A stretch of 53,844 bases of DNA from an uncultured Candidatus Saccharibacteria bacterium (GTDB lineage: Bacteria > Patescibacteriota > Minisyncoccia > JAHIHE01 > DAOWLE01), in NCBI GenBank assembly GCA_964430135.1, contig CAYSEG010000001.1, positions 5,959-59,802 of the forward strand, in the 5' to 3' direction. The translations under genes and the position numbers were made by a program. The notes under the pieces were generated by a model. It made no database searches. It worked only from the letters and a program-made list of their open reading frames with translations, and was not told the DNA's origin. Every line of letters begins with the position of its first letter. Within the stretch, counting starts at the first letter, position 1. Below, piece after piece: positions 5,492 to 47,976 of this stretch.

Positions 5492-6295
5492 ATGCCTATA
5501 AATAAAATCACAATTTTGCCCGGGATAAATAAATTCGGCAGAAAAGAAAATTTCGAGAAAATTGATATCAAAAAAGGGGAAGTAATAGCTATTGTTGGCC
5601 GCACCGGAGCGGGCAAAAGTCAACTTCTTTACGATATTGAAAGGTTAGCCCAAAAAGACACCAAAAGCAAAAGGGAAATTTTAGTCAATAACAAAACTCC
5701 CAATAGAGAATTAAGATTCAACCCTAAAAGAAAATTAATCGCTTCGCTGGCCCAAAGCATGAATTTCTTAACAGACATATCTGTTAAGGATTTTTTGCAA
5801 TTACATCTGGAATCTCGCGGGAAAAAAGCAAGGCCTGGATTGCTTAAAGAAGTAATACAAGAAGCTAATAAAATTACCGGCGAGGCGATTTTGCCTGAAA
5901 TGAATTTGCTTAATTTGTCAGGAGGGCAAAGCAGGGCGCTGATGGTCTCTGACGTAGCCAATATCAGCGTCTCACCTATTATTTTAATTGATGAAATAGA
6001 AAATGCCGGCATTAAAAAAGAACAAGCAATTAAAATTTTAGTGGAAGAAGAAAAAATTGTCTTAATTGTTACTCACGATCCGTCTTTGGCGCTAAATGCT
6101 GACAAAAGAATTATTATTAAAGACGGGGGAATTGTCAAAATTTTAAATACTTCTCTAAAAGAAAAAGGCATTGCCCATTATTTAAATTGGATAGAAAGTT
6201 ATAACTTAGAGATAAGGGAAAAAATAAGAAAAGGACAAGAAATTAAGAATATAGAAATATATTGCGAGCCGGCTAAATTTAAAAAGGAAATATGA
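5492..6295 (+). CDS. ABC-type ATPase with no adjacent permease
   Basis: Walker A GRTGAGKS, signature LSGGQSRAL, Walker B ILIDEIE, H-loop THD. Its stop overlaps the next ORF start (ATGA at 6292-6295). Confidence 0.75.
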   Translation: MPINKITILPGINKFGRKENFEKIDIKKGEVIAIVGRTGAGKSQLLYDIERLAQKDTKSKREILVNNKTPNRELRFNPKRKLIASLAQSMNFLTDISVKDFLQLHLESRGKKARPGLLKEVIQEANKITGEAILPEMNLLNLSGGQSRALMVSDVANISVSPIILIDEIENAGIKKEQAIKILVEEEKIVLIVTHDPSLALNADKRIIIKDGGIVKILNTSLKEKGIAHYLNWIESYNLEIREKIRKGQEIKNIEIYCEPAKFKKEI

Positions 6296-9730: not shown

Positions 9731-9733
9731 CAG

Positions 9734-9804
9734 TGGACCTAGGCAGAATCGGACTGCCGTCTCCGCCGTGCAAAGGCGGTATTCTACCATTAAACTATAG
9801 GCCC
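9734..9804 (-). tRNA. tRNA-Ala (anticodon UGC)
   Basis: Minus strand GGGCCTATAGTTTAATGGTAGAATACCGCCTTTGCACGGCGGAGACGGCAGTCCGATTCTGCCTAGGTCCA. G3:U70 identity pair, anticodon loop TTTGCAC, no encoded CCA. The T-loop TCCGATT is atypical. Confidence 0.75.
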
Positions 9805-9888
9805 ATGCAATCTTAACCGTATTTTGAAGCGGTATTGCCGCGTCTGCTCCCCACTACAGCAAATCTTTACAAATGTTAATTAAAATAG

Positions 9889-9960
9889 CACCGCCACGGG
9901 GAATCGAACCCCGGTTGCCAGGATGAAAACCTGATGTCCTAACCACTAGACGATGGCGGC
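9889..9960 (-). tRNA. tRNA-Glu (anticodon UUC)
   Basis: Minus strand GCCGCCATCGTCTAGTGGTTAGGACATCAGGTTTTCATCCTGGCAACCGGGGTTCGATTCCCCGTGGCGGTG. Cloverleaf folds by hand, with a G1:U72 wobble. Confidence 0.8.
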
Positions 9961-10239
9961 ATTATATCTAAATTATTTTATGGCGTGAAAATAAATAAAA
10001 CCTGAAGTTCTAGACTGATTTATCATTACTACAATCTAAACAAATCTAGTGCGCGAATTAAATTCATTTAAACCACAAAGGAGTCGCTTCGCGACCCTAT
10101 GGGCATGCCTTCATTATTATTTTACTAAATTTAACCCCCATAAATTAAAATTTTAGTATAGGAAGTTTAGCCGCAAAAACTACCAAGGTCTAATTGAACA
10201 AAATTCTGATATCTTCTGATTACCCGTTTCCGAAACTAT

Positions 10240-10316
<77 letters not shown>

Positions 10317-10401
10317 ATCATCGGCAAAGTCAAAACGGGGGAATAATAGAGTTGCTTTACTGTTACTATCGCTCTTTCCTGTAATGACACCTATTAAATA
10401 G

Positions 10402-12614: not shown

Positions 12615-14077
12615 ATCCCGTGTATTCAACATTCTAAAATGACACCGAAAAGGTATTGGTTCTGCAATATAAAATGACACCGAAATTTTATAGAATGTAG
12701 GGTGAAAATAATTGTCTGGCCTTGAAGGAATATTCTTTATGGTTTTGAAAGAAAGATATTCTCAAAAGTCAGACCACTCTACTATGGATATGTATTCTCG
12801 AAACCAATACCTAAAAGAACTAAAGAAAGAATATTTAAAACAAAAATCAAAGAAAGAGAAATCTAAGTTATTAGATGAGGCAGAAAAAAGAACTGGTCTT
12901 TGCAGAAAACATCTCATGGTTAAATTAAGACCAAAAAGTAATCTGGATAAAAGAAAAGAAGCGAGAAAGAGAAGAAAAGTATATTATGATGGCTATGTTA
13001 AAGCAGCTTTGGTTCAAATCTGGCGAATCTTTGATTATCCTTGTGGTCAGAGATTAGAACCTTTACTTAAAACTGAGGTAGATAGATTAAGGAAATTAGG
13101 CGAATTGAATTGTTCTGATGAAGTAGCTAAGAAACTAAAGAAAATTAGTTTCCGGACAATTGATGAAAAACTCAAACATCAGAAAGAAGTAGAGAGAATA
13201 AGGAAGAAATATCAGAAAAAGGTTCATCCTCTTTTGTATCAAAAGATACCAGTTAAACTCTCGGATGAATGGGATCGGTCTCAATTAGGCAATATCCAGA
13301 CAGATTTGGTTGAGCATTGTGGACAATCAGCTAGAGGAGAATATATCAATACTGTTTCCAACACTGATATTGCCACTGGCTGGTGGGAGGGTGAAGCAAT
13401 TATGAGTAGAGGGCAAATACCAACCTGTGAAGGATTAGACAGAGCCAGAAAAAGATTTCCTTTTGCTCGGCAAGAAGTCCACTCAGATAATGGCGCAGAA
13501 TATATTAATGCTCATTTATTCAACTATACCCAGAAAGAAGGGTTGGGCTTTTCCAGATCAAGACTCAACAAAAAGAATGACAATTGCTTTGTCGAACAGA
13601 AGAACTGGACCCATGTGAAAAAGTTTGTTGGCTATTTAAGATATGATACTTTAAAAGAACAAGAAGTCTTAAATGATTTGTATCATCATGAATTAAGATT
13701 ATACAAAAACTTCTTTCAGCCAGTGATTAAGTTAGTTGCTAAAGAAAGAATCGGAGGTAAAATCTATCGTAGATATGATACTCCTAAAACTCCTTATCAG
13801 AGAGTAATGGAATCAAAAGAAGTGTCAGAAAAAACAAAACAAGAATTAAAGAAAATCTACCAATCTTTAAATCCGGCTCAATTGAAAAGAGTGATTGACA
13901 AGAAATTAGATCTTCTCTACCAAGCTTATCAAAAGAAAACACAATCTCAAAAGGTCGCCTATCAAAAGAAAGTTTCGGTTAGATTTTTAATTGCTCAACC
14001 AGAGCCTATTTTGGTTAGATAGTTAAATTGCTTGACACGATATTTCTTGATTTTCAAGGTGTTACCTATGTATCTCA
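12615..14077 (+). mobile_element. putative IS element (ends uncertain)
   Basis: Single transposase ORF. The left side has two copies of aaaatgacaccgaaa (about 12636 and 12670). The right side has the inverted, similar ggtgttacc..ttcaagg region (14050-14072). No clean TIR/TSD pair could be defined by eye. Confidence 0.4.
12712..14022 (+). CDS. DDE-type transposase / integrase (rve core domain)
   Basis: 436 aa. Candidate D, D, E residues in TDLVEHCG, HSDNGAEYIN and VEQKNWTHVK, with a basic HTH-like N-terminus. ATG at 12739 is a more likely start than TTG at 12712. Confidence 0.85.
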   Translation: MSGLEGIFFMVLKERYSQKSDHSTMDMYSRNQYLKELKKEYLKQKSKKEKSKLLDEAEKRTGLCRKHLMVKLRPKSNLDKRKEARKRRKVYYDGYVKAALVQIWRIFDYPCGQRLEPLLKTEVDRLRKLGELNCSDEVAKKLKKISFRTIDEKLKHQKEVERIRKKYQKKVHPLLYQKIPVKLSDEWDRSQLGNIQTDLVEHCGQSARGEYINTVSNTDIATGWWEGEAIMSRGQIPTCEGLDRARKRFPFARQEVHSDNGAEYINAHLFNYTQKEGLGFSRSRLNKKNDNCFVEQKNWTHVKKFVGYLRYDTLKEQEVLNDLYHHELRLYKNFFQPVIKLVAKERIGGKIYRRYDTPKTPYQRVMESKEVSEKTKQELKKIYQSLNPAQLKRVIDKKLDLLYQAYQKKTQSQKVAYQKKVSVRFLIAQPEPILVR

Positions 14078-21085: not shown

Positions 21086-21377
21086 GAGCGATTAAATTAA
21101 AGGTTTTAATCAAACCTGTTTTTTCCTTTTAAATAAAAGGAAAGACGACCTAAGACCGCCTATTAAAGTCTGAATTCACACACTTTAATTGGGCAATCTA
21201 TAGAAAGGAGGTGATCCATCGACAGGTTCTCCTACCGATGCCTTGTTACGACTTCACCCTTATTGCCGATCTTACCTTCGGACCCTAACGGGCACTTCGG
21301 GTATTACCGACTCTCTTGGTGTGACGGGCGGTGAGTACAAAACCTGAGAACGTATTCACCGTGACATGGCTGATTCA

Positions 21378-21410
<33 letters not shown>

Positions 21411-21660
21411 ATTGCAGACTCCAATCCGAACTGAGACCGGCTTTGATGGGATTAGCTCCGCCTCGCGGCTTGGCAAAACCCTTTGTACCGGCCATTGTAG
21501 CATGTGTGTGGCCCAGGGCATCAAGGGCCATGCTGATTTGGCGTCATCCCCGCCTTCCTCCCTGTTAACCAAGGCAGTCTTGTCTGACACTTGTAACAGA
21601 CAATAGGGGTTGCGCTTGTTTCCGGACTTAACCGAGCGATTCACACCACAAGCTGACGAC

Positions 21661-22745
21661 CATGTTATTCCATAATTACTTATGGCACGGACTATACCAT
21701 TTCCCATTTGGTAGCTGGAAAAAAGAGAGAAGAAAATAAATTTATTTTATTATTCTCTTCTTTTTTTATGTTTTTAATTCTTGGTAAAACGCTTCTCTGA
21801 TTTTTAGAATATCTTGCCGCGTATCTATGTAAAATTTCTGCCAAAATCATGGCTCTTTCTGGATCTTCTGTATAACATTTTTTCCATACTTCTTTTATTT
21901 CTGAATCGCTCGCTTTTATTACCCACTCTCTGACGATTTATTCCTGCTTATATGCTTTTTGTTCGTATTTAAGACAAGCGGCTATATGATTCATTACCTC
22001 ATCTTCTTCATTCGTTTTTGGTTCTTTGTCTTTGTACTACTAAAAACGTAACAAGAGATATTGCACTAATACTTACTACTCCTGCAATCCAAATGCCTAT
22101 CAAAAACGAAATTACCTTTAAGTAAATCAAAAATGCTATAACTATTAAAGCTCCGTCTGCTACCATCTCTATTTTTTTTATTTCTCTCATTTTTCATCTC
22201 CTTTTCCCAGCCACCAATTTTTGGGAACCAGCGTGTAATGATAGGTTAAAAGCTACCATTAAACTCTCTTAGCCCTAGCGAGAGTTAAGTCTCTACGGGG
22301 TCAAGCGCACCTCGCTACTGCTTGGTGCTAAACTCAAAAATCAAATCTCAAAAATCAAAAATACAAATGAAAAATTAAAAATTTTATATTTTACATTATC
22401 ATTTTGCCTGCCTGCCGGCAGGTAGGTATTTTGATTTTTGCATTTTGAATTTAGGTTGTTTTAAACAACCGCTGACTTCCCACGGTATCACCCATCCACT
22501 GCTCCGCAGTGGAAATTCCAAATCCCAATTTCCAAATTTCAAACAAATTTCAAATTCAAATTTTGAAAAATTCAAAACAAATTTTCTTTTCATTTTGTCT
22601 TAATCATTTGAATTCTGAATTTTAGATTTGTTTCGGATTTCGGATTTTGAATTTGGTGCTTCCATTGCGAAGCAATGGCTTGGGTTTCACCGTTATGAGC
22701 TGGTTTTTTCACTAAGGATTACTCCTTAGTGGGTCATCTTTCAAT
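21661..22745 (-). other. ~1085-nt intervening sequence, putative group I-like intron, in the GCATGGYTGTCGTCAGC region
   Basis: The upstream exon ends ...GCATGGTT (U) and the insert ends ...AACATG (G) before GTCGTCAGC. A possible P1 is GGTT|attgaaagat-GACC with a U:G at the junction. Many short hairpins. The ORF loop is closed by ggtagc/gctacc. AT-rich repeats are inserted in peripheral parts. Confidence 0.55.
22008..22190 (-). CDS. small 2-TM hydrophobic protein encoded inside the 16S intervening sequence
   Basis: 60-aa ORF MREIKKIEMVADGALIVIAFLIYLKVISFLIGIWIAGVVSISAISLVTFLVVQRQRTKNE, preceded by AAGGAG-7nt-ATG. Confidence 0.4.
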   Translation of the reverse strand: MREIKKIEMVADGALIVIAFLIYLKVISFLIGIWIAGVVSISAISLVTFLVVQRQRTKNE

Positions 22746-22842
22746 AACCATGCAGCACCTGTCACCGGGTTTCCTAAAAGGACACTCCTCCCTTTCAGGA
22801 GGATTCCCGGGATTTCAAGCCCTGGTAAGGTTCCTCGCTTAT

Positions 22843-22876
<34 letters not shown>

Positions 22877-23326
22877 AGGTCCCCGTCTATTCCTTTGAGT
22901 TTTAAGCTTGCGCTCGTACTTCCCAGGCGGGATATTTAATGCGTTAGCTTCGGCACTAAAAGGGTCGACACTCCTAATGCCTAATATCCATCGTTTACGG
23001 CGTGGACTACTGGGGTATCTAATCCCATTCGCTACCCACGCTTTCGTCTCTCAACGTCAGCTTTGCCCCAGCTGAATGCCTTCGCCTTTGGTGTTCCTTG
23101 CGATATCAACGCATTTCACTACTACACCGCAAGTTCCATCAGCCTCTAGCAAGCTCTAGTCTAAACGTTTCAAATGCGGTCCTAAAGTTGAGCTTTAGGA
23201 TTTAACATCTGACTATTTAGACCGTCTACAGACGCTTTACGCCCAGTGATTCCGGATAACGCTCGGGGTCTCTGTATTACCGCTGCTGCTGGCACAGAGT
23301 TAGCAACCCCTTATTCCTTAGATACG

Positions 23327-23700
23327 CTCAAATTAGCAGCTGATTTGTAGTTGTTAAATATTTTTATTGACTGAATTCAAGCTTTAGCCTGCAAATTTTA
23401 CACCCTAAAGGGTGAACTCCAAGAAAAAGAAAAAATAGGCGGGAGATAAAAGAAAATTTATTTATCTCCCCTTTTTACTTATTTCAAATATTTCCTCCTG
23501 TAGTTTTTTGATAGTATCAACTATCCAGCTTATCTCAATATTTCTTGGCACTGTAAAAGAAACGCCTCTGCTGCTTACTTCAAATCTTCTTCTATCGCTT
23601 AACTCTCTTATTCTTACACGGATTACCACATCCATTTTTTCTTTTCTTTCTTTTTTCATTTTTTGTGATTTTAGCAACCACAAAACAGCCACTAATCTTG
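23327..23700 (-). other. ~375-nt insertion in the V3 hairpin of the 16S gene
   Basis: Lies between ...GTAAAGCTCTTTTCTTAGAGAA and TGAGCGTATCTAAGGAATAAGG. Contains ORF 23462-23692, hairpin gggagataaa..tttatctccc (23441-23470), and an antisense partial copy of the E-family repeat (about 23345-23420). Confidence 0.7.
23462..23692 (-). CDS. hypothetical small basic protein encoded in the 16S V3 insertion
   Basis: 76-aa ORF (more likely starts MKKERKEKMDVV...). No clear SD and no recognisable family. Confidence 0.25.
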   Translation of the reverse strand: MAVLWLLKSQKMKKERKEKMDVVIRVRIRELSDRRRFEVSSRGVSFTVPRNIEISWIVDTIKKLQEEIFEISKKGR

Positions 23701-24000
23701 TTCTCTAAGAAAAGAGCTTTACACCCCGAAGGGCTTCTTCGCTCACGCGGCGTCGCTCCGTCAGGCTTTCGCCCATTGCGGAAGATTCTCGACTGCAGCC
23801 TCCCGTAGGAGTCTGGGCAGTGTCTCAGTCCCAGTGTTGGGGGCCATGCTCTCACACCCCCTAACCGTCATCGCCTTGGTAGGCCATTATCCCACCAACA
23901 AGCTGATAGTGCGTAGGCCATTCGCCAACCGGAAATCTTTGCAGATACCTTTACTGGAAGCTGATTATTTATCACGAGATATTTTGAAAATCTACGGGCT

Positions 24001-24070
24001 TAAATTCAAAATTCAAAATTTTACATTTTACATTGTCATTTTGCATTTTGATTTTTGATTTTTTAATTTT
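24001..24070 (-). other. AT-rich expansion of a V2 helix of the 16S gene
   Basis: Sits at the tip of the helix formed by ctggaagttgattattta/taaataatcagcttccag. Contains a 40-mer (24019-24058) identical to 24280-24319. Confidence 0.7.
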
Positions 24071-24207
24071 CTCTCGCGCTAAATAATCAACTTCCAGACT
24101 ATCAGGAATTAGCTACCCTTTCGAGTAGTTATGCCTGAGTTGACGGTATGTACCAACGTGTTACTAACCCGTTTGCCGCTATCGTGCCTCGCTGTCGCTC
24201 GCCACTC

Positions 24208-24330
24208 AAATCCAAAAATCAAATATCAAATATCAAAAATACAAGTCAAAATTTAAAATTATCTAAATTTAAAAAATCTTTTTACATTTTACATTGTCAT
24301 TTTGCATTTTGATTTTTGAATTTTGAATTT
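24208..24330 (-). other. AT-rich ~120-nt hairpin expansion of V1 (helix 6) of the 16S gene
   Basis: Inserted between ...CGGCACTCCC and GAGTGGCGAGCGACAGCGAGGCACG. The arms are self-complementary caaaat/attttg repeats. Confidence 0.7.
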
Positions 24331-24382
24331 AGGGAGTGCCGAACGATAGTGAGGCACGACCGCACGACTTGCATGCCTTATC

Positions 24383-24422
<40 letters not shown>

Positions 24423-27024: not shown

Positions 27025-29295
27025 TCATTCTTTATCATCTAATTTTACTGACACCAATTTTGATACCCCATCTTCTCCCATAGTTACCCCGTAAAGAGTG
27101 TTCGCTTGCTGCATAATCTGCCGGTTATGGGTAATTAAAATAAACTGGGTAACGGGAGCAAGTTCCTTCAAAATTTTCCCAAGTTTTTGGGAATTAGCTT
27201 CGTCTAAAGCAGCATCTATTTCATCTAAAATTGAAAACGGCGGAGGATTATTGCTAATAATAGCAAATAGAATAGCAACAGAAATTAAAGCTCTTTCTCC
27301 TCCTGAAAACATAGCGATCCCTTTGATTCTTTTGTCCGGCAGGCTTACTTTTATTTCAATTCCCTTGCTAGAAAAACTGTTTGTAATTTCCGAATTTATA
27401 AATCTAGAATCATGGATATCCTCAGAATTTTCAATTTTTTCTTTTTTTGTCGAAGAATAATTCGGAACCGTCCCTGATGGAGCTTGAATTTTTAACTCAG
27501 CATGACCTCCACCGAATATCAGCCGAAAATATCTGTTAAAATCTTTATTGATATTTTTAAAAGACGCCTGAAATTGACTTTCTATTTTTTTCCTAAGCCA
27601 AGTTATTGTTTTTATAAGAGAAGCTTCGGCTTTTCTTAAATCCTCGAACTGACCGCTTAAAAAATTATAGCGTTCTTCGGTCTCGCTACACTCATCTAAA
27701 ACATTAGGATCAATTCCTCCAATTTGAGCTAACTGACCTTTCATTTTTTCAATTTGGTTTTTTATTTCCTCTTCGTCAATTTGCTCTTTCGGCTTTTGAA
27801 GCTCAGATCCACAAGAGCCTAACTCACTTTCTATTTCGCGAGTTAAATCTTCCAATCGCGTCTCAATTCTTGCCTCTTCAATCTCAATGGTTCTTCTGGC
27901 ATCTTTTTTTTTGTTGATTTCTTCAAGCGCCCTCCTTAACTGATCTTGAAAAATAAAAAATTCTTTAGATCTCGTTTGATTTTTTCTAAAATCCTCCTCA
28001 ATATCAGCTCTTGCCTTAGAAATTAATTTTTCAAATTTTTGAAGTTGTTTCTTAATTTTTTCCCTGTCTTCTTGAAATTTCTGAATTATCGCTTTATTTT
28101 TTTCTTTCAGCTTTGACGAAGAAATTTTATCGGAATTGCCGGCGCAACCAGATTTAACTTGGTTTAGAATCTGATCTAATTTTTTTCCTAAATTTTCAAA
28201 ATGTTTTTCAATGTTGGAAAAATCATTCTTCTTTTCTGCTTCACTCCATCCTTTTTTTATTATTTTATAAATTTTGGAAATTTCTTCCAATTCTTTATTA
28301 ATGTAAGAAAGGTCTACTGGAATTGTTTTTGAAAAATGGAATTCCTTCTCTTGTTCTGTCTGGAGACGGCCTTCTATTATGGCTAATTCTTTCTGCAGTT
28401 CATTTCTTTTATTTTGGAAAACTGATAATTTCTCGGTTAATTTTTTTTGAACTTCTGTGCGGGTTTGATTCGTTATCTCTGCGCTATTTAGTTTCCTTTT
28501 AATCTCTTCTATCCTATCTTGAACTGCAAAAATTCGCTTGTCTAAATTCTCTTTTTCTTTCTTAAGCTGATAGAGAGCGCTTTTTAATTTAAAAACAGAA
28601 TGAGAGTACCATTTTCTTTGAAGTTCGGTTAATCTTTTTTCTATCTCCCCGCGGCGCCTTGCTTTGTTTGCCAAACGCCTAAGCGATCTAAGACGAGGGG
28701 CAATTTCATTAAGCAAGTCTGACACTCGCGTTAAATTCCGCTGGCTTGCCTCAAGGCGGCGAAAAGTCTCGCGAGCTTTAAGCTGATATTGTTTCACTCC
28801 GGTCGCTTGATCAAATATATCCTTCCTCTCCTGGGGCGATGAGGAAAGAATATTGTCAATCATTCCCTGGCTAATTACTGAATACCCCCTTTGGCTCACA
28901 CCCGAAGCGGCTAAAAGCTCAACAATATCAGCAAGCCTGACCTTTTTATTGTTAATCAAATATTCGCCTTCACCATTTCTATAGGCGCGGCGAGAAATAA
29001 CCGTTTCTTCAAAATCTATAGGAATACGGCCTTCGCTGTTGTCTAAATACAAAGAAACTGACGCTCCGCCTTGACGGGACTTTTTTGCCGAACCGGCAAA
29101 AATAACATCCTCGGATCTTTTTATTCTAATAAGTTTTGGGCTTTGTTCTCCTAATGCCCAGCGGACAGCGTCTGCTATGTTTGATTTTCCAGAGCCGTTT
29201 GGACCAACGATAGCAGTAATGCTCCGGTCAAATTCTAAAACAGTCTTGTGGGCAAAAGACTTAAAGCCGGAAATTTCAAGTCGTTTTAAATACAT
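27025..29295 (-). CDS. smc: SMC-family chromosome segregation ATPase, short with no recognisable hinge
   Basis: N-terminus MYLKRLEISGFKSFAHKT...GPNGSGKSN. C-terminus FSGGERALISVAILFAI...LDEIDAALD...ITHN. Only 756 aa, with a continuous coiled-coil-like middle. Confidence 0.85.
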   Translation of the reverse strand: MYLKRLEISGFKSFAHKTVLEFDRSITAIVGPNGSGKSNIADAVRWALGEQSPKLIRIKRSEDVIFAGSAKKSRQGGASVSLYLDNSEGRIPIDFEETVISRRAYRNGEGEYLINNKKVRLADIVELLAASGVSQRGYSVISQGMIDNILSSSPQERKDIFDQATGVKQYQLKARETFRRLEASQRNLTRVSDLLNEIAPRLRSLRRLANKARRRGEIEKRLTELQRKWYSHSVFKLKSALYQLKKEKENLDKRIFAVQDRIEEIKRKLNSAEITNQTRTEVQKKLTEKLSVFQNKRNELQKELAIIEGRLQTEQEKEFHFSKTIPVDLSYINKELEEISKIYKIIKKGWSEAEKKNDFSNIEKHFENLGKKLDQILNQVKSGCAGNSDKISSSKLKEKNKAIIQKFQEDREKIKKQLQKFEKLISKARADIEEDFRKNQTRSKEFFIFQDQLRRALEEINKKKDARRTIEIEEARIETRLEDLTREIESELGSCGSELQKPKEQIDEEEIKNQIEKMKGQLAQIGGIDPNVLDECSETEERYNFLSGQFEDLRKAEASLIKTITWLRKKIESQFQASFKNINKDFNRYFRLIFGGGHAELKIQAPSGTVPNYSSTKKEKIENSEDIHDSRFINSEITNSFSSKGIEIKVSLPDKRIKGIAMFSGGERALISVAILFAIISNNPPPFSILDEIDAALDEANSQKLGKILKELAPVTQFILITHNRQIMQQANTLYGVTMGEDGVSKLVSVKLDDKE

Positions 29296-29318
29296 AAAGA
29301 AATTAAATTATTCCAAAC

Positions 29319-29434
29319 GGACTGACACGCGTAGCGGAGCGGAGTGTGTTATTCGTTTGCTTTGCTACGATAACAAACTTCCTTTCATTACATTTGTCAT
29401 TCCGTAATTTATATGCATTGCGTTTGTCATTCCG
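29319..29434. repeat. REP-like inverted pair of the 35-nt X unit, plus an extra half-copy
   Basis: ggactgacacgcgtagcggagcggagtgtgttatt ... gataacaaacttcctttcattacatttgtcattccg ... gcgtttgtcattccg. Same units as 2549-2630 but in the opposite relative order. Confidence 0.7.
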
Positions 29435-29494
29435 ATTTTCTTTCAACCTCTTTATATTATCATTTTTATAAATTTTGAACAAGATAAAAAAAAT

Positions 29495-29528
29495 AGAAGG
29501 AAAACGATCCCTTGAATCTTTTCCTTCT
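29495..29528 (-). terminator. hairpin + T-run terminator after the TFB-like gene
   Basis: agaaggaaaa-N14-ttttccttct with T-runs on both strands. Confidence 0.6.
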
Positions 29529-29531
29529 TTT

Positions 29532-30530
29532 TTATTTTTTGTCCAGAATATTATTATTCTTTGGCCTACCTGCATAACTGGAAACGTTTAAATCTATCCC
29601 AAGATTTAATCCCTCTGACAACTCTTTAAATCTGCCTCGTATAGTAGGCTCAGTTGTATCCGCAACTTCAGCTATTTCTTTTTGTGTCCGATGTCTCCCA
29701 TTAAAAATCGCCGAGATATAAATAGCCGCGGCTGCTATTCCTTTGGGGTCTTGACTTTTAACCAACAGCCCTTTCTTTATCGCCAAGCTTATTATTTGTA
29801 TTGCCTCTGCGCTTATCTTTCCTTCTAAGCCAAGCTCCGAACAAAAACGAGGCACATAACTGACGGCGGGCGCAGGCGGAACTTTCAGGTTAAGTTCTTT
29901 TGAAAGAAAATGAACTCTCCGAAGAATTTCTTTCTGGCTGGCCGCTCTTGATACTTCTGTGATTTCCTTAAGCATTAATGGTATTCCACGTTGTCTACAG
30001 ATAATATGTAAAAGCGCGGCGACTATTGATTCCACCCTTTTACCCTTAATCAAATTTTTTTTCATTGCTCTGCGGTATAATCCAGCTATTTCCTCTCTAA
30101 TATCCATCGGCAATCCAAGCAGACAAGACATCCGGTCTATCTCCGAAAGAGCATAATCAAAACTTGTATTTTGAATCCATTTACTGCCTGTTCGCCGCTG
30201 AGCATTTTTTAATCTATCTTCGAGGAAAAAAGAGCTTTTCCAAAGAGAAAATGTTTTTAATCCTAAATTACTCATTCTCAAAGTCGTTGGCGGCCCAACT
30301 CTTACCTTCTTTAATTTTTGTTTAGAATCAAAAGCCCGCCATTCAGGACCAAGGTCAATTACTTGTTCGTCTATTACTAATCCGCAATCAGCGCAGAAAA
30401 GACCATCGCCATTATTTACTAAATTAGAACTATTGCACTCAGGGCATTTTCGGGGCTTTGATATAAGCCTACCATCAACATCCTGGACAACTCTCTTCTT
30501 CCCATTTCCTTTATTCATTGTTTTGACCAT
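29532..30530 (-). CDS. transcription initiation factor IIB (archaeal TFB)-like protein
   Basis: Zn-ribbon CPECNSSNL...CADCG. B-linker block VIDLGPEWRAFD...VRVGPP. Two cyclin-fold repeats, and the HTH-like block RTQKEIAEVADTTEPTIRGRFKEL. ATG at 30530 is preceded by AAGGTGAT. Confidence 0.85.
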   Translation of the reverse strand: MVKTMNKGNGKKRVVQDVDGRLISKPRKCPECNSSNLVNNGDGLFCADCGLVIDEQVIDLGPEWRAFDSKQKLKKVRVGPPTTLRMSNLGLKTFSLWKSSFFLEDRLKNAQRRTGSKWIQNTSFDYALSEIDRMSCLLGLPMDIREEIAGLYRRAMKKNLIKGKRVESIVAALLHIICRQRGIPLMLKEITEVSRAASQKEILRRVHFLSKELNLKVPPAPAVSYVPRFCSELGLEGKISAEAIQIISLAIKKGLLVKSQDPKGIAAAAIYISAIFNGRHRTQKEIAEVADTTEPTIRGRFKELSEGLNLGIDLNVSSYAGRPKNNNILDKK

Positions 30531-30576
30531 TTTTATCACCTTATTGGAAAGAACAATTCATCCAAAATCTATTTAA

Positions 30577-30605
30577 AAGATAGATGAGAACTGATTTTAT
30601 GTCAA
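30577..30605 (-). promoter_or_regulatory. sigma70-like promoter of the TFB-like gene
   Basis: Minus strand TTGACA (30600-30605), 17 nt, TATCTT (30577-30582). Confidence 0.5.
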
Positions 30606-30642
30606 CCCCGTTAGTTTAACAGAACCAAGCTTCAATAAAAAA

Positions 30643-30674
30643 GTCTTACAGAAAAAATTCTATTTCTGTAAGAC
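30643..30674 (-). terminator. hairpin + T-run terminator after the DUF92 gene
   Basis: gtcttacagaaa-N8-tttctgtaagac, followed on the minus strand by ttttttatt. Confidence 0.6.
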
Positions 30675-30712
30675 TATCTTTTAATTTTTGTTTTGCCGGC
30701 AACAGCACTGAA

Positions 30713-31417
30713 TCAAAAAAGAAAAATACTCGCTATCATTGCTATAAATCCCCCTAATAAGGTCGTTATTAGATTAATCTCATGGGTATTAATTTTTTTC
30801 TTTTGCTCAAGAGTGCTTCCTAATAAGGAATCTGCCATGCAGCCAGCAAAACCCGACAAAAGACAAACTGCAAATATCCCCGTCCCGTATCCATAGAAAA
30901 TCAAAAGCGCGCTGATTATCGTCGAACCAAACAAAGCAAATAAAAATCCTTCTTTAGTTACTGCTCCGGCAGTGCCAACTGAAACTCTCTTCAAATTGTG
31001 TATAAATCTCGGATGCTTTCCCCAAACTTGTCCCATTTCTGTCGCTGAAGTATCAGCCATCGCTGTAGCTATAGCGCCAATCGATCCAATAAAAAATATA
31101 GAATCGCCGGTACAAATATAAGATAAAGCAAATATCATTGCCGCACCGCCATTAGCTCCTATATTTTTCCATGTCCGAATAGATTGTTCCACGCCTAATC
31201 GATTCTTCTTTTGTCTTTTATAATACGTCTCAAGACTCCCCCCGACGAAAAATATAAACGGCGCAATTATCCACTTACTACCCCCTGCAACCAGAAAAAT
31301 AACTCCAATCATCACTGTTGCCACTGTCGCTGTTCTGTCAATTTTTTCTTTCTTGTAGGCGTAATATAATATTCCGCCTATCAACGCTACAAGCATTCCC
31401 GTCAAAACAATTTCCAT
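30713..31417 (-). CDS. DUF92 (TIGR00297-like) integral membrane protein
   Basis: 234-aa polytopic protein with Gly-rich blocks (VSVGTAGAVTKEG, GANGGAAM) resembling the DUF92/TMEM19 family. Confidence 0.6.
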   Translation of the reverse strand: MEIVLTGMLVALIGGILYYAYKKEKIDRTATVATVMIGVIFLVAGGSKWIIAPFIFFVGGSLETYYKRQKKNRLGVEQSIRTWKNIGANGGAAMIFALSYICTGDSIFFIGSIGAIATAMADTSATEMGQVWGKHPRFIHNLKRVSVGTAGAVTKEGFLFALFGSTIISALLIFYGYGTGIFAVCLLSGFAGCMADSLLGSTLEQKKKINTHEINLITTLLGGFIAMIASIFLF

Positions 31418-44988: not shown

Positions 44989-47922
44989 TTATTTGCTCAG
45001 TATATCAAAAACCGCCTTAACGATCATATAAGAAATACCTGAAACAAATAAACCAACTATCGCGTAGATGATAATTTTCTTGGCTTTTTCTAATTTTATT
45101 TCCTGCCCGGTAGCTGTCATATACATTAAACCTCCAATAATAAGCACAAAAAGAGCAAGCAACGCAATTATGCCCAGAACCCAATCAACCACATTAAGTA
45201 AAATATCAAGAAGAGGTCTATTGGCAAGGCCAAAACTGCCGGAACAATCAACATCAAATACACATTGAGTTTCTCCCGGACTACACCCTACTCCACCAGA
45301 ACATCCGGGAGGGACACAGATTTGCCCTCTTTGCGTATCAACCTTGCATCCGTGAGCGCCGCAACCGTCATCCTTCCAATGGCAACATTCCTGGGCAATG
45401 CCGTCGCAATCTTCATCTATTCCATTGCCACAGACTTCAGTTGCGGGGGCGCAAGAATTTCCACTGCAATGAGTGCCGGCATCACAGGATTTACTTTCAG
45501 TTTTACAATTATAATCACCCGACGAATCATCGCAATAGTGATCTACTAGCGAACATTCCACACAGGAATCTGAAGGGCACTGAGAATCTGTTGTGCAGCA
45601 TGTGCCGCTTGCGCAACAAATACCGCCTTGGCTGTAATTTGAACAGCACCAACTTGAATCCCCGCCATCGCTTTGCCCATTTGGAATACAATCTGTACAG
45701 CTTCCATCTGCCGCTACCAAAGTATGGCCTAAAGAACTATTACAGCATTTTGAACCATGTGCTGTTATGCCCGGACCTTCTGTAGCAAGAAATTCATCAG
45801 GATCGTCGCCGCAGCATTCTATTTCGCTTCCCGTATCATATTCGCCGAATTGGGCGGTTTCTCCGCCGGCAACCCATGCTCCGGTAATATTACAAGTAAC
45901 GAGAGCGCCACCTTCGCAAACAGACTGAGTCCTATCACAATCAACCCATGTGCCTGCTGGCGGCATTGGACCGCTGGTACAAACTGCTCCCGGACCAGTA
46001 CCTCCTAAATTAATCGTTGTAAAACAATCATAGCATGTATTATTATACACGCATTTTGGTGCACCAGCACAAGCATTAGGACCACAGCAAGCTTCATCGC
46101 TTGCATCATCTCCTCCAAAAGCACAACCTTCATCGGCAATATCATCACAAGAACTGCTTGCATCTTTTCTATATCCGTATGTTTCTCCGGGATCTCCTGA
46201 ATCTCCACAACAAGTTGTAGGAGAAGATTCTCCGCCCTTTCCCCAGCAGGTTCCTCCATTACAGGTAAACCCGGGACAAGTAGCTCCTGTTTCGCAGAAA
46301 TTTTTATTTGAATCGCAGTCGCAGTCTGCATCAGCTACGCATCGAAAAGGAGTAACCGCAGGATCGCACACTCCGCCAGAACAGCCAGCGGGCCCGCAAG
46401 ATTCGCCTCTTTCTGAAGCTGGATCACATCCATGAGCTCCGCATCCGTCATCCTGCCATGCGCAACAAACATTAGGGCAGCTTCCTCCGCAATCAGTCCC
46501 GGTTTCATCACAATCTTGAATTCCATTAATACAATGGTCCGCACAATTGGCCCAAACATTACAGTTCCCAGAGCCATCACATTGTTTGTCGCATATATGA
46601 TGCCAGCCCCCTCCTCCATCGCGGCAAAGATTTGTGTCGCAGAAATCACCAGCCCCGCAAACGCCTCCCGAGCAAGCGGTATTTGCCGGACAATTAACTA
46701 AAGAACTTTTACAATAATGGTCGGTTGTATTATCGCAATAGTTGTCAGTTAATTGGCAATCGCCCGAACAGCTATCCGCAGGACAATCAGCATCGTTTGA
46801 GCAACAAGTATGTCCTGCATCACAGCAAATTCCATTTTGGCAATTGCCAGAACAACAATCTCCGTCCACAATACAGGCTCCGCCGTTGGAGACGCAAGTA
46901 ATGATAGAACCAGTGACAGTTTGATTATATTCTTCAAAAGCCAAACCAGAACGACTACTAAAGCTTATTACTAATTTTTGGTTAGTCCCAGATACAATAT
47001 CAGTTGTATAGCTTTGAACATCAGGACCACTAGTACAATACCATTTACTATTACACAATTCTATGCTCCCATTTGTTCCATCAAACCTATAATCAATACC
47101 TGGTATTATACACGCTGCTCCAGAACCACAAGCACTCTTTTCGACGTACTCAAAACTTACATTTGTAATATGATAGTGAGCACCACTTTTAGACGGAAAG
47201 ATAAAAGTATGATTTCTATAACACGAGGATGCTGAGTGTACTGATTGCGACCCACAATTATTCTTATAACTAAAAGCTCCGGCAGGTTCTGCTTTCACAT
47301 TTATGCACCATTTGTCAGGATCAACACAACCCCAAACAGGCAAATAAACATTATTCCCTTCCCAGTCCGAAGTTGACGCCCAGTATTTGATTGTCTTGTT
47401 TGTATATAAAGAAAGGTTAAAAGATTCCGCGCAAGTCGCATTTTTAGTACCCGAAGCAAAACTGCAGGTATTTGAATGCTGGACTCCACTAACCTCCCAG
47501 TAAATTGTAATATTATGAATTCCGGAACCGACAGTTCCGTCAGCGTTGTCTATAGCGTCTACCTCAATATTAATATTTCCAAGTGTGTCAAAAGTCGTAA
47601 CCCCCCCCTTATAAGTATCTCCGTCCGAATCCCTAATCTCAAGTCGAGTAATTGCCGGAGGCTTGGTATCTGAAGACGATGCCAAAACGCTTCCAGCAAG
47701 TCCTGTCGCGGCATAAATTGCTCCGCCAGATTCAAAAGGAGAGTAGACAGTTACTGCACCAGCTAAATCGCCCGTATTAGTAGGAGCTTGAGCTTGAACC
47801 GATAACCCCTTGATAAACCCTGTGGTAAGCTTGTTGAATCCATCAGGGCATAAATTTGATAAAGACAGACTAAATAAAATAACTAATCCACTTAAAATAA
47901 TTTTTAGTTTTAGATTATGCAT
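44989..47922 (-). CDS. large secreted Cys-rich repeat protein with a C-terminal two-TM (TrbC/VirB2-pilin-like) anchor
   Basis: Signal-peptide-like MHNLKLKIILSGLVILFSLSLS. More than 100 Cys in repeated modules (CCSNDADCPADSC.../CCTTDSQCPSDSC...; CCAWQDDGCGAHGC.../CCHWKDDGCGAHGC...). The C-terminus has two hydrophobic helices. Visibly higher G+C than the flanks. Confidence 0.8.
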   Translation of the reverse strand: MHNLKLKIILSGLVILFSLSLSNLCPDGFNKLTTGFIKGLSVQAQAPTNTGDLAGAVTVYSPFESGGAIYAATGLAGSVLASSSDTKPPAITRLEIRDSDGDTYKGGVTTFDTLGNINIEVDAIDNADGTVGSGIHNITIYWEVSGVQHSNTCSFASGTKNATCAESFNLSLYTNKTIKYWASTSDWEGNNVYLPVWGCVDPDKWCINVKAEPAGAFSYKNNCGSQSVHSASSCYRNHTFIFPSKSGAHYHITNVSFEYVEKSACGSGAACIIPGIDYRFDGTNGSIELCNSKWYCTSGPDVQSYTTDIVSGTNQKLVISFSSRSGLAFEEYNQTVTGSIITCVSNGGACIVDGDCCSGNCQNGICCDAGHTCCSNDADCPADSCSGDCQLTDNYCDNTTDHYCKSSLVNCPANTACSGGVCGAGDFCDTNLCRDGGGGWHHICDKQCDGSGNCNVWANCADHCINGIQDCDETGTDCGGSCPNVCCAWQDDGCGAHGCDPASERGESCGPAGCSGGVCDPAVTPFRCVADADCDCDSNKNFCETGATCPGFTCNGGTCWGKGGESSPTTCCGDSGDPGETYGYRKDASSSCDDIADEGCAFGGDDASDEACCGPNACAGAPKCVYNNTCYDCFTTINLGGTGPGAVCTSGPMPPAGTWVDCDRTQSVCEGGALVTCNITGAWVAGGETAQFGEYDTGSEIECCGDDPDEFLATEGPGITAHGSKCCNSSLGHTLVAADGSCTDCIPNGQSDGGDSSWCCSNYSQGGICCASGTCCTTDSQCPSDSCVECSLVDHYCDDSSGDYNCKTESKSCDAGTHCSGNSCAPATEVCGNGIDEDCDGIAQECCHWKDDGCGAHGCKVDTQRGQICVPPGCSGGVGCSPGETQCVFDVDCSGSFGLANRPLLDILLNVVDWVLGIIALLALFVLIIGGLMYMTATGQEIKLEKAKKIIIYAIVGLFVSGISYMIVKAVFDILSK

Positions 47923-47976
47923 AATAATTTTCAATTTACAATTTTCAAGCACCAACAAAATTCCAAATCTCAATTT

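Follow-up and report, generated by a model that had tools for sequence, protein, structure and literature searches.

The stretch of DNA analysed here (the window: 53,844 nucleotides, positions 5,959 to 59,802 of contig CAYSEG010000001.1) carries a gene for a homologue of the basal transcription factor TFB/TFIIB in a bacterial genome. As far as sequence comparison goes, this gene is shown to be archaeal, of the type found in group 1 of the anaerobic methanotrophic archaea (ANME-1), and to have been captured by, fixed in and long kept by Patescibacteria (the Candidate Phyla Radiation, CPR), where it is one member of a TFB family that is specific to CPR and has five or more lineages. The genes of basal transcription factors are a textbook case of genes that stay within one domain of life, since their products work solely as parts of a multi-protein machine; in the present case, a complete TFB has long been kept in bacteria without the rest of that machine, as far as it is visible. 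What could such a protein do there? The reading favoured below, at a probability of about 0.35, is that of a host-directed TFB mimic aimed at an archaeal host.

Profile, sequence and structure comparisons agree on the identity of the protein, as an earlier sequence-only reading of the window had claimed, and two of the checks proposed with that claim, a profile search and a structural superposition, came out in its favour. Pfam assigns the protein a Zn_Ribbon_TF domain (3.5e-14, residues 31-70) and the TFIIB repeat over two stretches (1.3e-30), with no sigma-70 family among its matches at E <= 0.1. A sequence search of the PDB retrieves the TFB core of Pyrococcus woesei (1ais_B/1d3u_B, E = 6.6e-42, residues 127-315) and full-length human TFIIB (E = 2.1e-35). 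In an AlphaFold2 model the core (residues ~120-310) is confident, with a predicted local distance difference test score (pLDDT) of ~88 (blocks 81-93), and disorder is predicted for the N-terminus, for residues 56-118 and for the last 18 residues; Foldseek lays the modelled core on 1d3u_B with a template-modelling (TM) score of 0.82 and a root-mean-square deviation of 2.2 Å over 188 residues at 42% identity. All the motifs named earlier (CPEC...CADCG, IDLGPEWRAFD, VRVGPP and RTQKEIAEVADTTEPTIRGRFKEL) are found in the protein. One correction concerns its start. Read from GTG 30539, the open reading frame (ORF) spans 29532-30539 on the minus strand and encodes 335 residues, as originally proposed; ATG 30530, giving 332 residues, is the more likely start, because the GTG falls within the Shine-Dalgarno sequence AAGGTGAT and all close relatives are called from that ATG.

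How intact is this TFB? The yardstick was a set of 89 positions conserved to 95% or more across the 155 nearest archaeal TFBs, which stand for the donor group. The gene and its domains are the following.

29532..30530 (-): coding sequence of the TFB/TFIIB homologue, 332 amino acids plus stop, likely start ATG 30530
30381..30446 (-): zinc ribbon, C29-G50 (CPEC...CADCG), four cysteines retained (Pfam and alignment)
30285..30365 (-): B-reader region, residues 56-82 (IDLGPEWRAFD ... RVG), 11 of 12 donor-group-conserved positions retained
30177..30284 (-): B-linker/connector, residues 83-118, HDKGLST changed to SNLGLKT, 3 of 7 conserved positions retained, pLDDT < 50
29886..30176 (-): first cyclin repeat, residues 119-215, CRQ arginine R179 retained, RGRSIE changed to KGKRVE and GVPRTL to GIPLML
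29601..29885 (-): second cyclin repeat and C-terminal helix-turn-helix, residues 216-310 (TEPTIRGRFKEL; Pfam, PDB and Foldseek)
29535..29600 (-): CPR-specific C-terminal extension, residues 311-332, ending NNNILDKK, predicted disordered

The earlier statement that the ORF has the whole TFB architecture thus stands for the zinc ribbon, the reader and the two cyclin repeats; it does not stand for the B-linker, the RGRSIE and GVPRTL loops are changed, and the score against NCBIfam NF001658 (PRK00423), 283.9 bits, lies below the cut-off of 384. The zinc-ribbon cysteines (C29, C32, C46 and C49) are invariant across the alignment, and the GPEWRAF B-reader is retained with the Glu/Arg pair E63/R77, which sets the start site in TFIIB. 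The protein lacks 19 of the 89 donor-group-conserved positions, and the losses of its lineage concentrate at the B-linker (HDK to SNL), at the two loops of the first repeat and in the recognition helix (EVTIRNRY to EPTIRGRF). At the linker, which helps DNA opening in TFIIB, the consensus (R/T)IHDKGLST reads RMSNLGLKT and is thus not preserved. In the first repeat, the GR of KGR is the BREd 'recognition loop' of TFIIB (G153/R154), and the CRQ arginine (R169 in TFIIB) pairs there with the stirrup of the TATA-binding protein (TBP). In the C-terminal helix-turn-helix, the element by which TFB reads the BRE, the helix is present and R298 is retained, alongside the change of TEVTIRNRY to TEPTIRGRF and the substitutions Y301F and G291D.

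The contig itself is unmistakably that of a member of the Patescibacteria, of Minisyncoccales/Paceibacteria type. The window holds a bacterial 16S rRNA gene (21217-24420, minus strand) in four Rfam segments separated by inserted DNA, 16S insertions being a CPR hallmark, and the Pfam matches of its 40 other ORFs comprise trmD, KhpA, S16, SMC (756 residues), DUF92, RNase III (rnc), NusB, L32, RNase HII, GroEL/ES, TyrRS, RecJ and the a, b, delta and alpha subunits of an F-type ATPase; a geranylgeranyl reductase, a protein with a T4SS-pilin domain and a cytidylyltransferase-like NMNAT candidate are also encoded. The nearest named relatives of the window GroEL, ~70% identical, are labelled 'Candidatus Pacebacteria/Paceibacterota' and 'Patescibacteria group'; the contigs of its nearest relatives (79-81% identity) stop directly after groEL. 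The 16S gene, the housekeeping set and the GroEL relatives uphold the claim of a bacterial context. No 23S gene is present in the window, and a tRNA-Ile/Glu/Ala cluster (9733-10317) lies 11 kb from the 16S gene. The 16S gene carries an insert of ~1.1 kb between model positions ~873 and ~925, and a 102-residue ORF (21399-21707) overlaps the gene; the SMC homologue (27025-29295, minus strand), at only 756 residues, is short for its family.

That an assembly chimera or a mis-binned archaeal fragment might produce this picture was the refutation named together with the original claim, and it is excluded by five independent assemblies including the window. The order DUF92, TFB, SMC, S16, KhpA was assembled independently four more times, with TFBs 96%, 86% and 89% identical (ENA ERZ2433807, here L001; ENA ERZ27227320, L003; and two JGI metagenomes, L104 and L113), and five TFB alleles fall within a 90% cluster. 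Because these assemblies share the synteny and identical junctions on both sides, the locus is not chimeric. The gene moreover lies mid-way in a 54-kb window that also holds the bacterial 16S gene, its GC content at third codon positions (GC3, 0.33) is that of its neighbours (0.27-0.35) and unlike that of the ANME-1 gene (0.42), and it has bacterial promoter, Shine-Dalgarno and terminator signals; a chimeric or mis-binned origin is effectively refuted. No direct or inverted repeats flank the TFB gene and LigT, a neighbour of other CPR TFB genes (see below), is absent from the other motif matches, and neither a mobile cassette nor a common landing site is indicated; no phage context was seen in the window, no PHROGs search having been made. 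The spacer between TFB and SMC (window 29296-29470; L003 3433-3768) holds GGAATGACAAA-type repeats, and an extra copy of ~98 bp in L003 marks this repeat as a small element whose copy number varies between strains.

The expression signals around the gene are as follows.

30577..30605 (-): sigma-70-type promoter, -35 TTGACA (30600-30605), 17-nt spacer, -10 TATCTT (30577-30582), 10 of 12 positions matching
30535..30542 (-): Shine-Dalgarno sequence AAGGTGAT, 4 nt 5' of the ATG
29486..29528 (-): intrinsic terminator, hairpin 29495-29528 and T8 run 29486-29493, -16.7 kcal/mol, z = -3.5
30642..30675 (-): terminator hairpin of the upstream DUF92 gene

Since DUF92 has its own terminator, the TFB gene is a separate transcription unit. 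Promoter-like matches across the region (3 against 4.1 expected) are not above chance, and the promoter argument therefore rests on position and conservation: the hexamers, the Shine-Dalgarno sequence and the terminator, all predicted earlier, are conserved in L001 (96% identical TFB) and L003 (86%), and the other CPR TFB genes have promoters of the form TTGAC(T/A)-17-TAnnAT. A sigma-70-type promoter with a Shine-Dalgarno sequence predicts transcription by the bacterial machinery, and these signals, together with a GC3 like that of the neighbours, agree with the description of the gene as domesticated. The clade B and C promoters (clades defined below) share TTGACTTT-N4-TCAAG(G) (L002 ~9960-10060; L084 ~1870-1960; L087; L092), and their palindrome-like -35 region may be an operator; the long N-terminal extensions of the clade B proteins P0048 and P0051 are probably mis-called starts, because the -10 element (TATGAT) overlaps the annotated ATG.

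Does the bacterium then also encode the partners that TFB needs in archaea? In the window, no TBP and no archaeal RNA polymerase (RNAP) family has a Pfam match among the 41 ORFs, and tblastn with the P. woesei TBP (E <= 10) returned only noise, as had been stated from the sequence. The TBP query was checked against 1PCZ (8.8e-123) and, as a positive control, TBP was found in the archaeal locus L047. The proposed wider search for TBP is negative, and confirms its absence to that extent only, over the window plus ~117 kb at ten related loci, 171 kb of CPR sequence in all. These results bear on a canonical archaeal-type initiation in the bacterium, in which the TFB would work with a TBP and a compatible polymerase from genes at other sites of the genome. 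The archaeal-flavoured neighbours (DUF92, the geranylgeranyl reductase and the NMNAT candidate) would suit such a system; against them stand the 171 kb around TFB-bearing CPR loci without TBP, the 41 window ORFs without a TBP or archaeal RNAP match, the sigma-70-type promoters of the genes here and the size of CPR genomes, ~1 Mb (1.54 Mb has been termed comparatively large for such a genome), which together make canonical initiation very improbable.

The relatives of the protein point to where the gene came from. Family members were found among its matches and by an exhaustive profile search; after its own two clusters, its best matches are TFBs of ANME-1/Methanophagales at ~53% identity. Five lineages, listed with identity to ANME-1 TFBs where given and with donor-group-conserved positions retained, can be told apart.

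Clade A, the window: context DUF92, TFB, SMC; 53-55% identity; 70 of 89
Clade B, P0048 ('Minisyncoccales bacterium', 134.8-kb contig), P0051 and P0071: context MraY-PepS11-AspRS-Mur ligase-LigT, then TFB; 71-77% identity; 82-88 of 89
Clade C, P0331/P0466 ('Candidatus Parcubacteria bacterium', 125-375 kb contigs): context as clade B; 49% identity; 67 of 89
Clade D, P0320, 411 residues with an extra repeat: LytR_cpsA_psr neighbour; 61% identity; 71 of 89
Clade E, L204: context LigT and Mur ligase; 79 of 89
Archaeal sequences: minimum 75 of 89, median 89

Every CPR lineage is closer to the ANME-1 TFBs than to any other CPR lineage, TFB identity among the latter being about 38-63%. This pattern is as expected if all CPR TFBs descend from an ANME-1-like sequence and each has diverged faster than the donor. 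In neighbour-joining trees, with and without bootstrap, the placement of clade A depends on the method and CPR monophyly has 0/100 support; because the phylogeny does not settle the matter, the identity pattern, the synteny and the shared tail are relied upon here. A position divergent to LigT is common to clades B, C and E, the window lineage having its TFB between DUF92 and SMC instead, with no LigT in the window. The full MraY-to-LigT block adjoins the TFB gene in L002 and L087 (both clade B) and in L092; L084 and L204 retain its LigT-proximal part, the clade B contig L084, which encodes P0051, keeping only LigT and AMMECR1. Among L002, L087 and L092, AspRS is 77-78% and MraY 81-86% identical, the TFBs only 46-63%, which indicates that the locus was inherited vertically within a family-level group and that TFB is among its fastest-evolving genes.

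Co-transfer of RNase HII, a neighbour of TFB in ANME-1 whose gene is found at a distance of 3 kb in the window, was rejected, as the two proteins are only 23% identical. P0049, with a tail ending '...NNVLDE', was excluded as a member: its contig is archaeal, with CbiA-like and Sm-like neighbours, and its tail differs from that of the near-identical P0045, probably through a frame change. A scan of genome contigs with the window protein returned archaea only, mostly haloarchaea, and no CPR locus, the short peptide patterns having picked up motifs generic to TFBs. P0366 (MFC1663650.1, 'Patescibacteria group bacterium', 66.6-kb contig) is a TFB with two zinc ribbons and no ILDKK tail, 36-41% identical to the family; it may have been acquired independently, or its contig may be mis-binned. 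Within the family, clade D (P0320/P0465; L095 263-1498) has a third cyclin-like repeat ahead of its ILDKK end and a bacterial LytR_cpsA_psr neighbour; L204 (1583-2563, adjoining LigT) reads GSERRAF for GPEWRAF and has lost the B-reader tryptophan; and directly downstream of the clade B TFB (L002 11162-14694; L084 6627-7187) lies a trio of radical-SAM, LigB (Memo-like) and AMMECR1 genes, typical of archaea and eukaryotes and a candidate for co-transfer.

What unites the family is its end. All CPR members have a C-terminal extension ending [Y/N/L/R/K]-ILDK-[K/N], a tail seen in none of ~300 archaeal TFBs examined; the domain interiors share essentially no derived residue, which leaves the tail as the only synapomorphy. 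It is encoded by an element conserved to the letter.

29536..29549 (-): invariant 14-nt element ATTCTGGACAAAAA (codons ATT CTG GAC AAA AA.)

This 14-mer is identical in 8 of 8 CPR TFB gene regions and is the longest substring common to them, outside the TFB domains. It occurs once per CPR locus in the window, L001-L003, L084, L087, L088, L092-L095 and L204 (among others at L002 11084-11097, L084 2945-2958, L087 10913-10926, L092 10889-10902, L095 1481-1494 and L204 ~2529), in 0 of 85 other loci, and is absent from the 3' ends of ANME-1 TFB genes. No other run of codons is identical throughout, as its four full codons are (of 58 invariant degenerate columns outside it, 7 use one codon), CTG and GAC are minority codons here (5% and 23%), and the conserved block stops in mid-codon. 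It always lies 8-17 nt upstream of the terminator hairpin, and AUUCUGGAC is predicted to be unpaired. In L204 the element is read in a different frame; removing one A from an A6 run would restore ...KILDKKIKK*, and the frame change is either a one-base error in that run or a real frameshift. Judged by these patterns, the 14-mer is conserved at the nucleotide level and not just as a peptide, in spite of identities of only 38-65% between the proteins; it could be the seed of a small RNA, a site for protein binding, or a peptide motif under an additional codon constraint. Rfam finds nothing credible at the TFB 3' end. Scans of metagenomes and viruses for the 14-mer plus a T-run gave 126 loci, three of them with a TFB (L104, L113 and L204), and because the non-TFB matches look like chance, the element is not a general repeat. 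Whatever it does, it constitutes an additional, unexplained regulatory signal.

Comparison of the TFB gene of the window with that of L001 gives 15 nonsynonymous and 11 synonymous changes; pooled over SMC, DUF92, rnc, S16 and KhpA, the counts are 0 and 15 (Fisher p = 1.4e-4 against TFB). The ratio of nonsynonymous to synonymous rates (dN/dS) is 0.38-0.58 for TFB and 0-0.36 for neighbouring genes. The 47.5 nonsynonymous and 30.5 synonymous substitutions counted for TFB compare with ~3.2:1 expected under neutrality; the gene is therefore constrained, and selection, as estimated from these counts, is purifying, with relaxed or in part diversifying constraint. Of the 15 amino-acid differences between the window and L001, eight fall within residues 88-110 as clustered point substitutions without a frameshift, a hot spot of allelic variation with two haplotypes among the alleles. 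The erosion of conserved positions is to be counted only relative to the donor group, because many representatives across the whole TFB family retain equally few of the 89; a statement that the window protein retains fewer than any archaeal TFB was dropped, being true only against the 155 closest homologues. Next to the gene, DUF92 (window 30713-31417) is identical in L001 and differs from L003 (1543-2268) with dS 0.87 and dN 0.17, dS being ~0.1 in flanking genes, and the DUF92-TFB segment is a local hot spot of divergence or recombination.

Taken with the 14-mer, the substitution pattern raises the question of whether the protein matters at all. The gene might be a largely dispensable passenger in slow decay, or be kept mainly for its mRNA 3' end (14-mer plus terminator), the selected unit being, for instance, a small RNA derived from the 3' untranslated region (putative start near ATTCTGGAC) or a protein-binding site, with the TFB protein weakly constrained. 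Such a view would account for the longest sequence common to eight gene regions being the 14-mer and no part of a TFB domain, for four codons identical in all lineages despite the rare CTG and GAC, for the retention of the 14-mer in L204 though the frame differs, for a dN/dS that is high relative to the neighbours and for module decay that differs by lineage. Yet every lineage and allele (more than 10 sequences) has an intact ORF, dN/dS lies clearly below 1, 67-88 of the 89 donor-conserved positions are retained despite family-level divergence, and a one-base error in the A6 run can explain the frame of L204, all of which leaves this explanation improbable.

If the protein does matter, on whose transcription does it act? 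It presumably cannot be a general initiation factor for its own cell, since that cell would use a bacterial RNAP and sigma. The sequence-only reading had concluded that a TFB without TBP or an archaeal RNAP implies a re-purposed DNA- or RNAP-binding factor; a host-directed role is at least as likely as re-purposing inside the bacterium, because the gene is of ANME-1 origin and the order contains known parasites of archaea. NCBI places Ca. Paceibacteraceae, Ca. Yanofskyibacteriaceae and Minisyncoccaceae in the order Minisyncoccales. Among its members, Minisyncoccus archaeiphilus lives as an obligate parasite on Methanospirillum hungatei (PMC12281837), and Ca. Yanofskybacteria attach to Methanothrix, whose filaments with attached cells were reported to contain more cells in which the ribosomal signal was weak or undetectable. 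As to habitat, four loci of the family (L088, L093, L094 and L095) come from cold-seep metagenomes of Site-F in the South China Sea, where a study reported both ANME and 44 metagenome-assembled genomes of Patescibacteria.

In the host-directed mimic favoured here, the protein would target the transcription machinery of an ANME-1-type or related archaeal host, dock on host RNAP and/or TBP-DNA through its retained modules and then divert initiation or, in the lineage of the window, block it; blocking is suggested for this lineage because its B-linker is defective while the modules for docking on RNAP and TBP are retained. A fuller version is conceivable but tentative: episymbionts of the Minisyncoccales would have captured the TFB of an ANME-1-type host and would deliver it as an effector that reprograms or shuts down host transcription, the ILDKK tail or the 14-mer serving export or regulation. 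Several points weigh against the host-directed reading. By eye, the window protein lacks an N-terminal signal peptide, and its gene is not linked to any secretion system; none of these bacteria has an identified host; most CPR lineages retain 67-79 of the 89 positions, which fits the loss of a partner as well as a decoy; and the stable synteny among housekeeping genes suits an endogenous function equally. Nor does a single decoy mechanism fit all lineages, because they erode different modules, L204 losing the B-reader W64 and the lineage of the window the linker, and the neighbour-joining trees leave undecided whether there was one transfer or several.

It is therefore nearly as likely that the TFB scaffold serves as an endogenous regulator, co-opted inside the bacterium to bind DNA or RNAP independently of TBP, with the tail as a new partner contact. 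This possibility, itself tentative, draws on the stable housekeeping context, the gene's own sigma-70 promoter and its long vertical inheritance beside LigT and a Mur ligase, and the absence of a signal peptide and the new conserved tail suit it too; the erosion of loops at what in TFIIB is the interface with TBP and DNA is expected once TBP is no longer a partner. It is strained by the lack of a known bacterial partner or target, by a zinc ribbon, GPEWRAF motif and E63/R77 pair that suit mainly the cleft of archaeal or eukaryotic RNAP and yet are retained in most lineages, by a TFB that evolves much faster between strains than its neighbours, which is unusual for a core regulator, and by a tail conserved at the nucleotide level too.

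Either outcome would be informative, revealing a partner-independent function of the TFB scaffold in bacteria or an action on another cell's machinery. Database entries for CPR TFBs (MGB2762013.1, MCK4354906.1 and MFC1663650.1) carry automatic names, and a full-text literature search found no paper describing TFB/TFIIB in CPR/Patescibacteria. As a protein family TFB is known; apparently new are its stable retention by bacteria, its derivation there from ANME-1, the tail that only CPR members have and the invariant 14-mer. Descent from ANME-1, members from cold seeps and an order with the only proven bacterial parasites of archaea combine into a testable pointer to an association between CPR bacteria and ANME archaea, and the gene also points to a possible mechanism of cross-domain parasitism. 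Should the protein prove to be a delivered effector, it would be the first from a bacterium shown to act on the basal transcription machinery of archaea, and a genomic marker that predicts archaeal hosts of uncultured CPR lineages. Because ANME archaea control the methane flux of sediments, a parasite interfering with their transcription would matter ecologically.

Elsewhere in the window, a 994-residue ORF (44989-47973, minus strand) has a C-terminal T4SS_pilin domain and is possibly relevant to cell-cell contact or delivery; at this ORF, over 45-47 kb, GC content rises to 0.46 (0.35 window-wide). A 436-residue ORF (12712-14022, plus strand) has a weak match to an integrase core (rve).

How does this TFB compare with known systems? 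In recognising promoters and positioning the start site, bacterial sigma-70 is functionally analogous to TFB, but the fold of the window protein is cyclin-like and not that of sigma. The core of P. woesei TFB, known from the complex of TBP, TFB and BRE-TATA DNA (1AIS, 1D3U), has a like fold; relative to it the recognition helix changes from TEVTVRNRY to TEPTIRGRF and the RGRSIE and GVPRT loops are altered, and no TBP partner was found near the window gene. The TFB of ANME-1/Methanophagales (P0010, 'Methanophagales archaeon'; L222), the nearest relative of every CPR lineage, has the same domain order (zinc ribbon, B-reader, B-linker, two cyclin repeats and helix-turn-helix), but its gene ends ...EQLEIDVLL without the ILDKK tail or the 14-mer and lies between RNase HII and Endo_dU in an archaeal genome of 43% GC. 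Archaeal viruses (Sulfolobales virus YNP1/YNP2 and Halorubrum tailed viruses) offer a precedent for a TFB carried by an exploiter of archaeal cells; at only 25-29% identity their proteins have no direct relationship to that of the window, and their genes are expressed inside the host, whereas a bacterial TFB would need delivery. Bacterial effectors that resemble host proteins and act on host transcription include the TAL effectors, the 'nucleomodulins' and the eukaryote-like proteins of Legionella. These have known secretion systems and eukaryotic targets, with nothing comparable for the CPR TFB; the proposed mimic would parallel them, and the viral TFBs, in its logic only, that of a host-type transcription protein encoded by a parasite.

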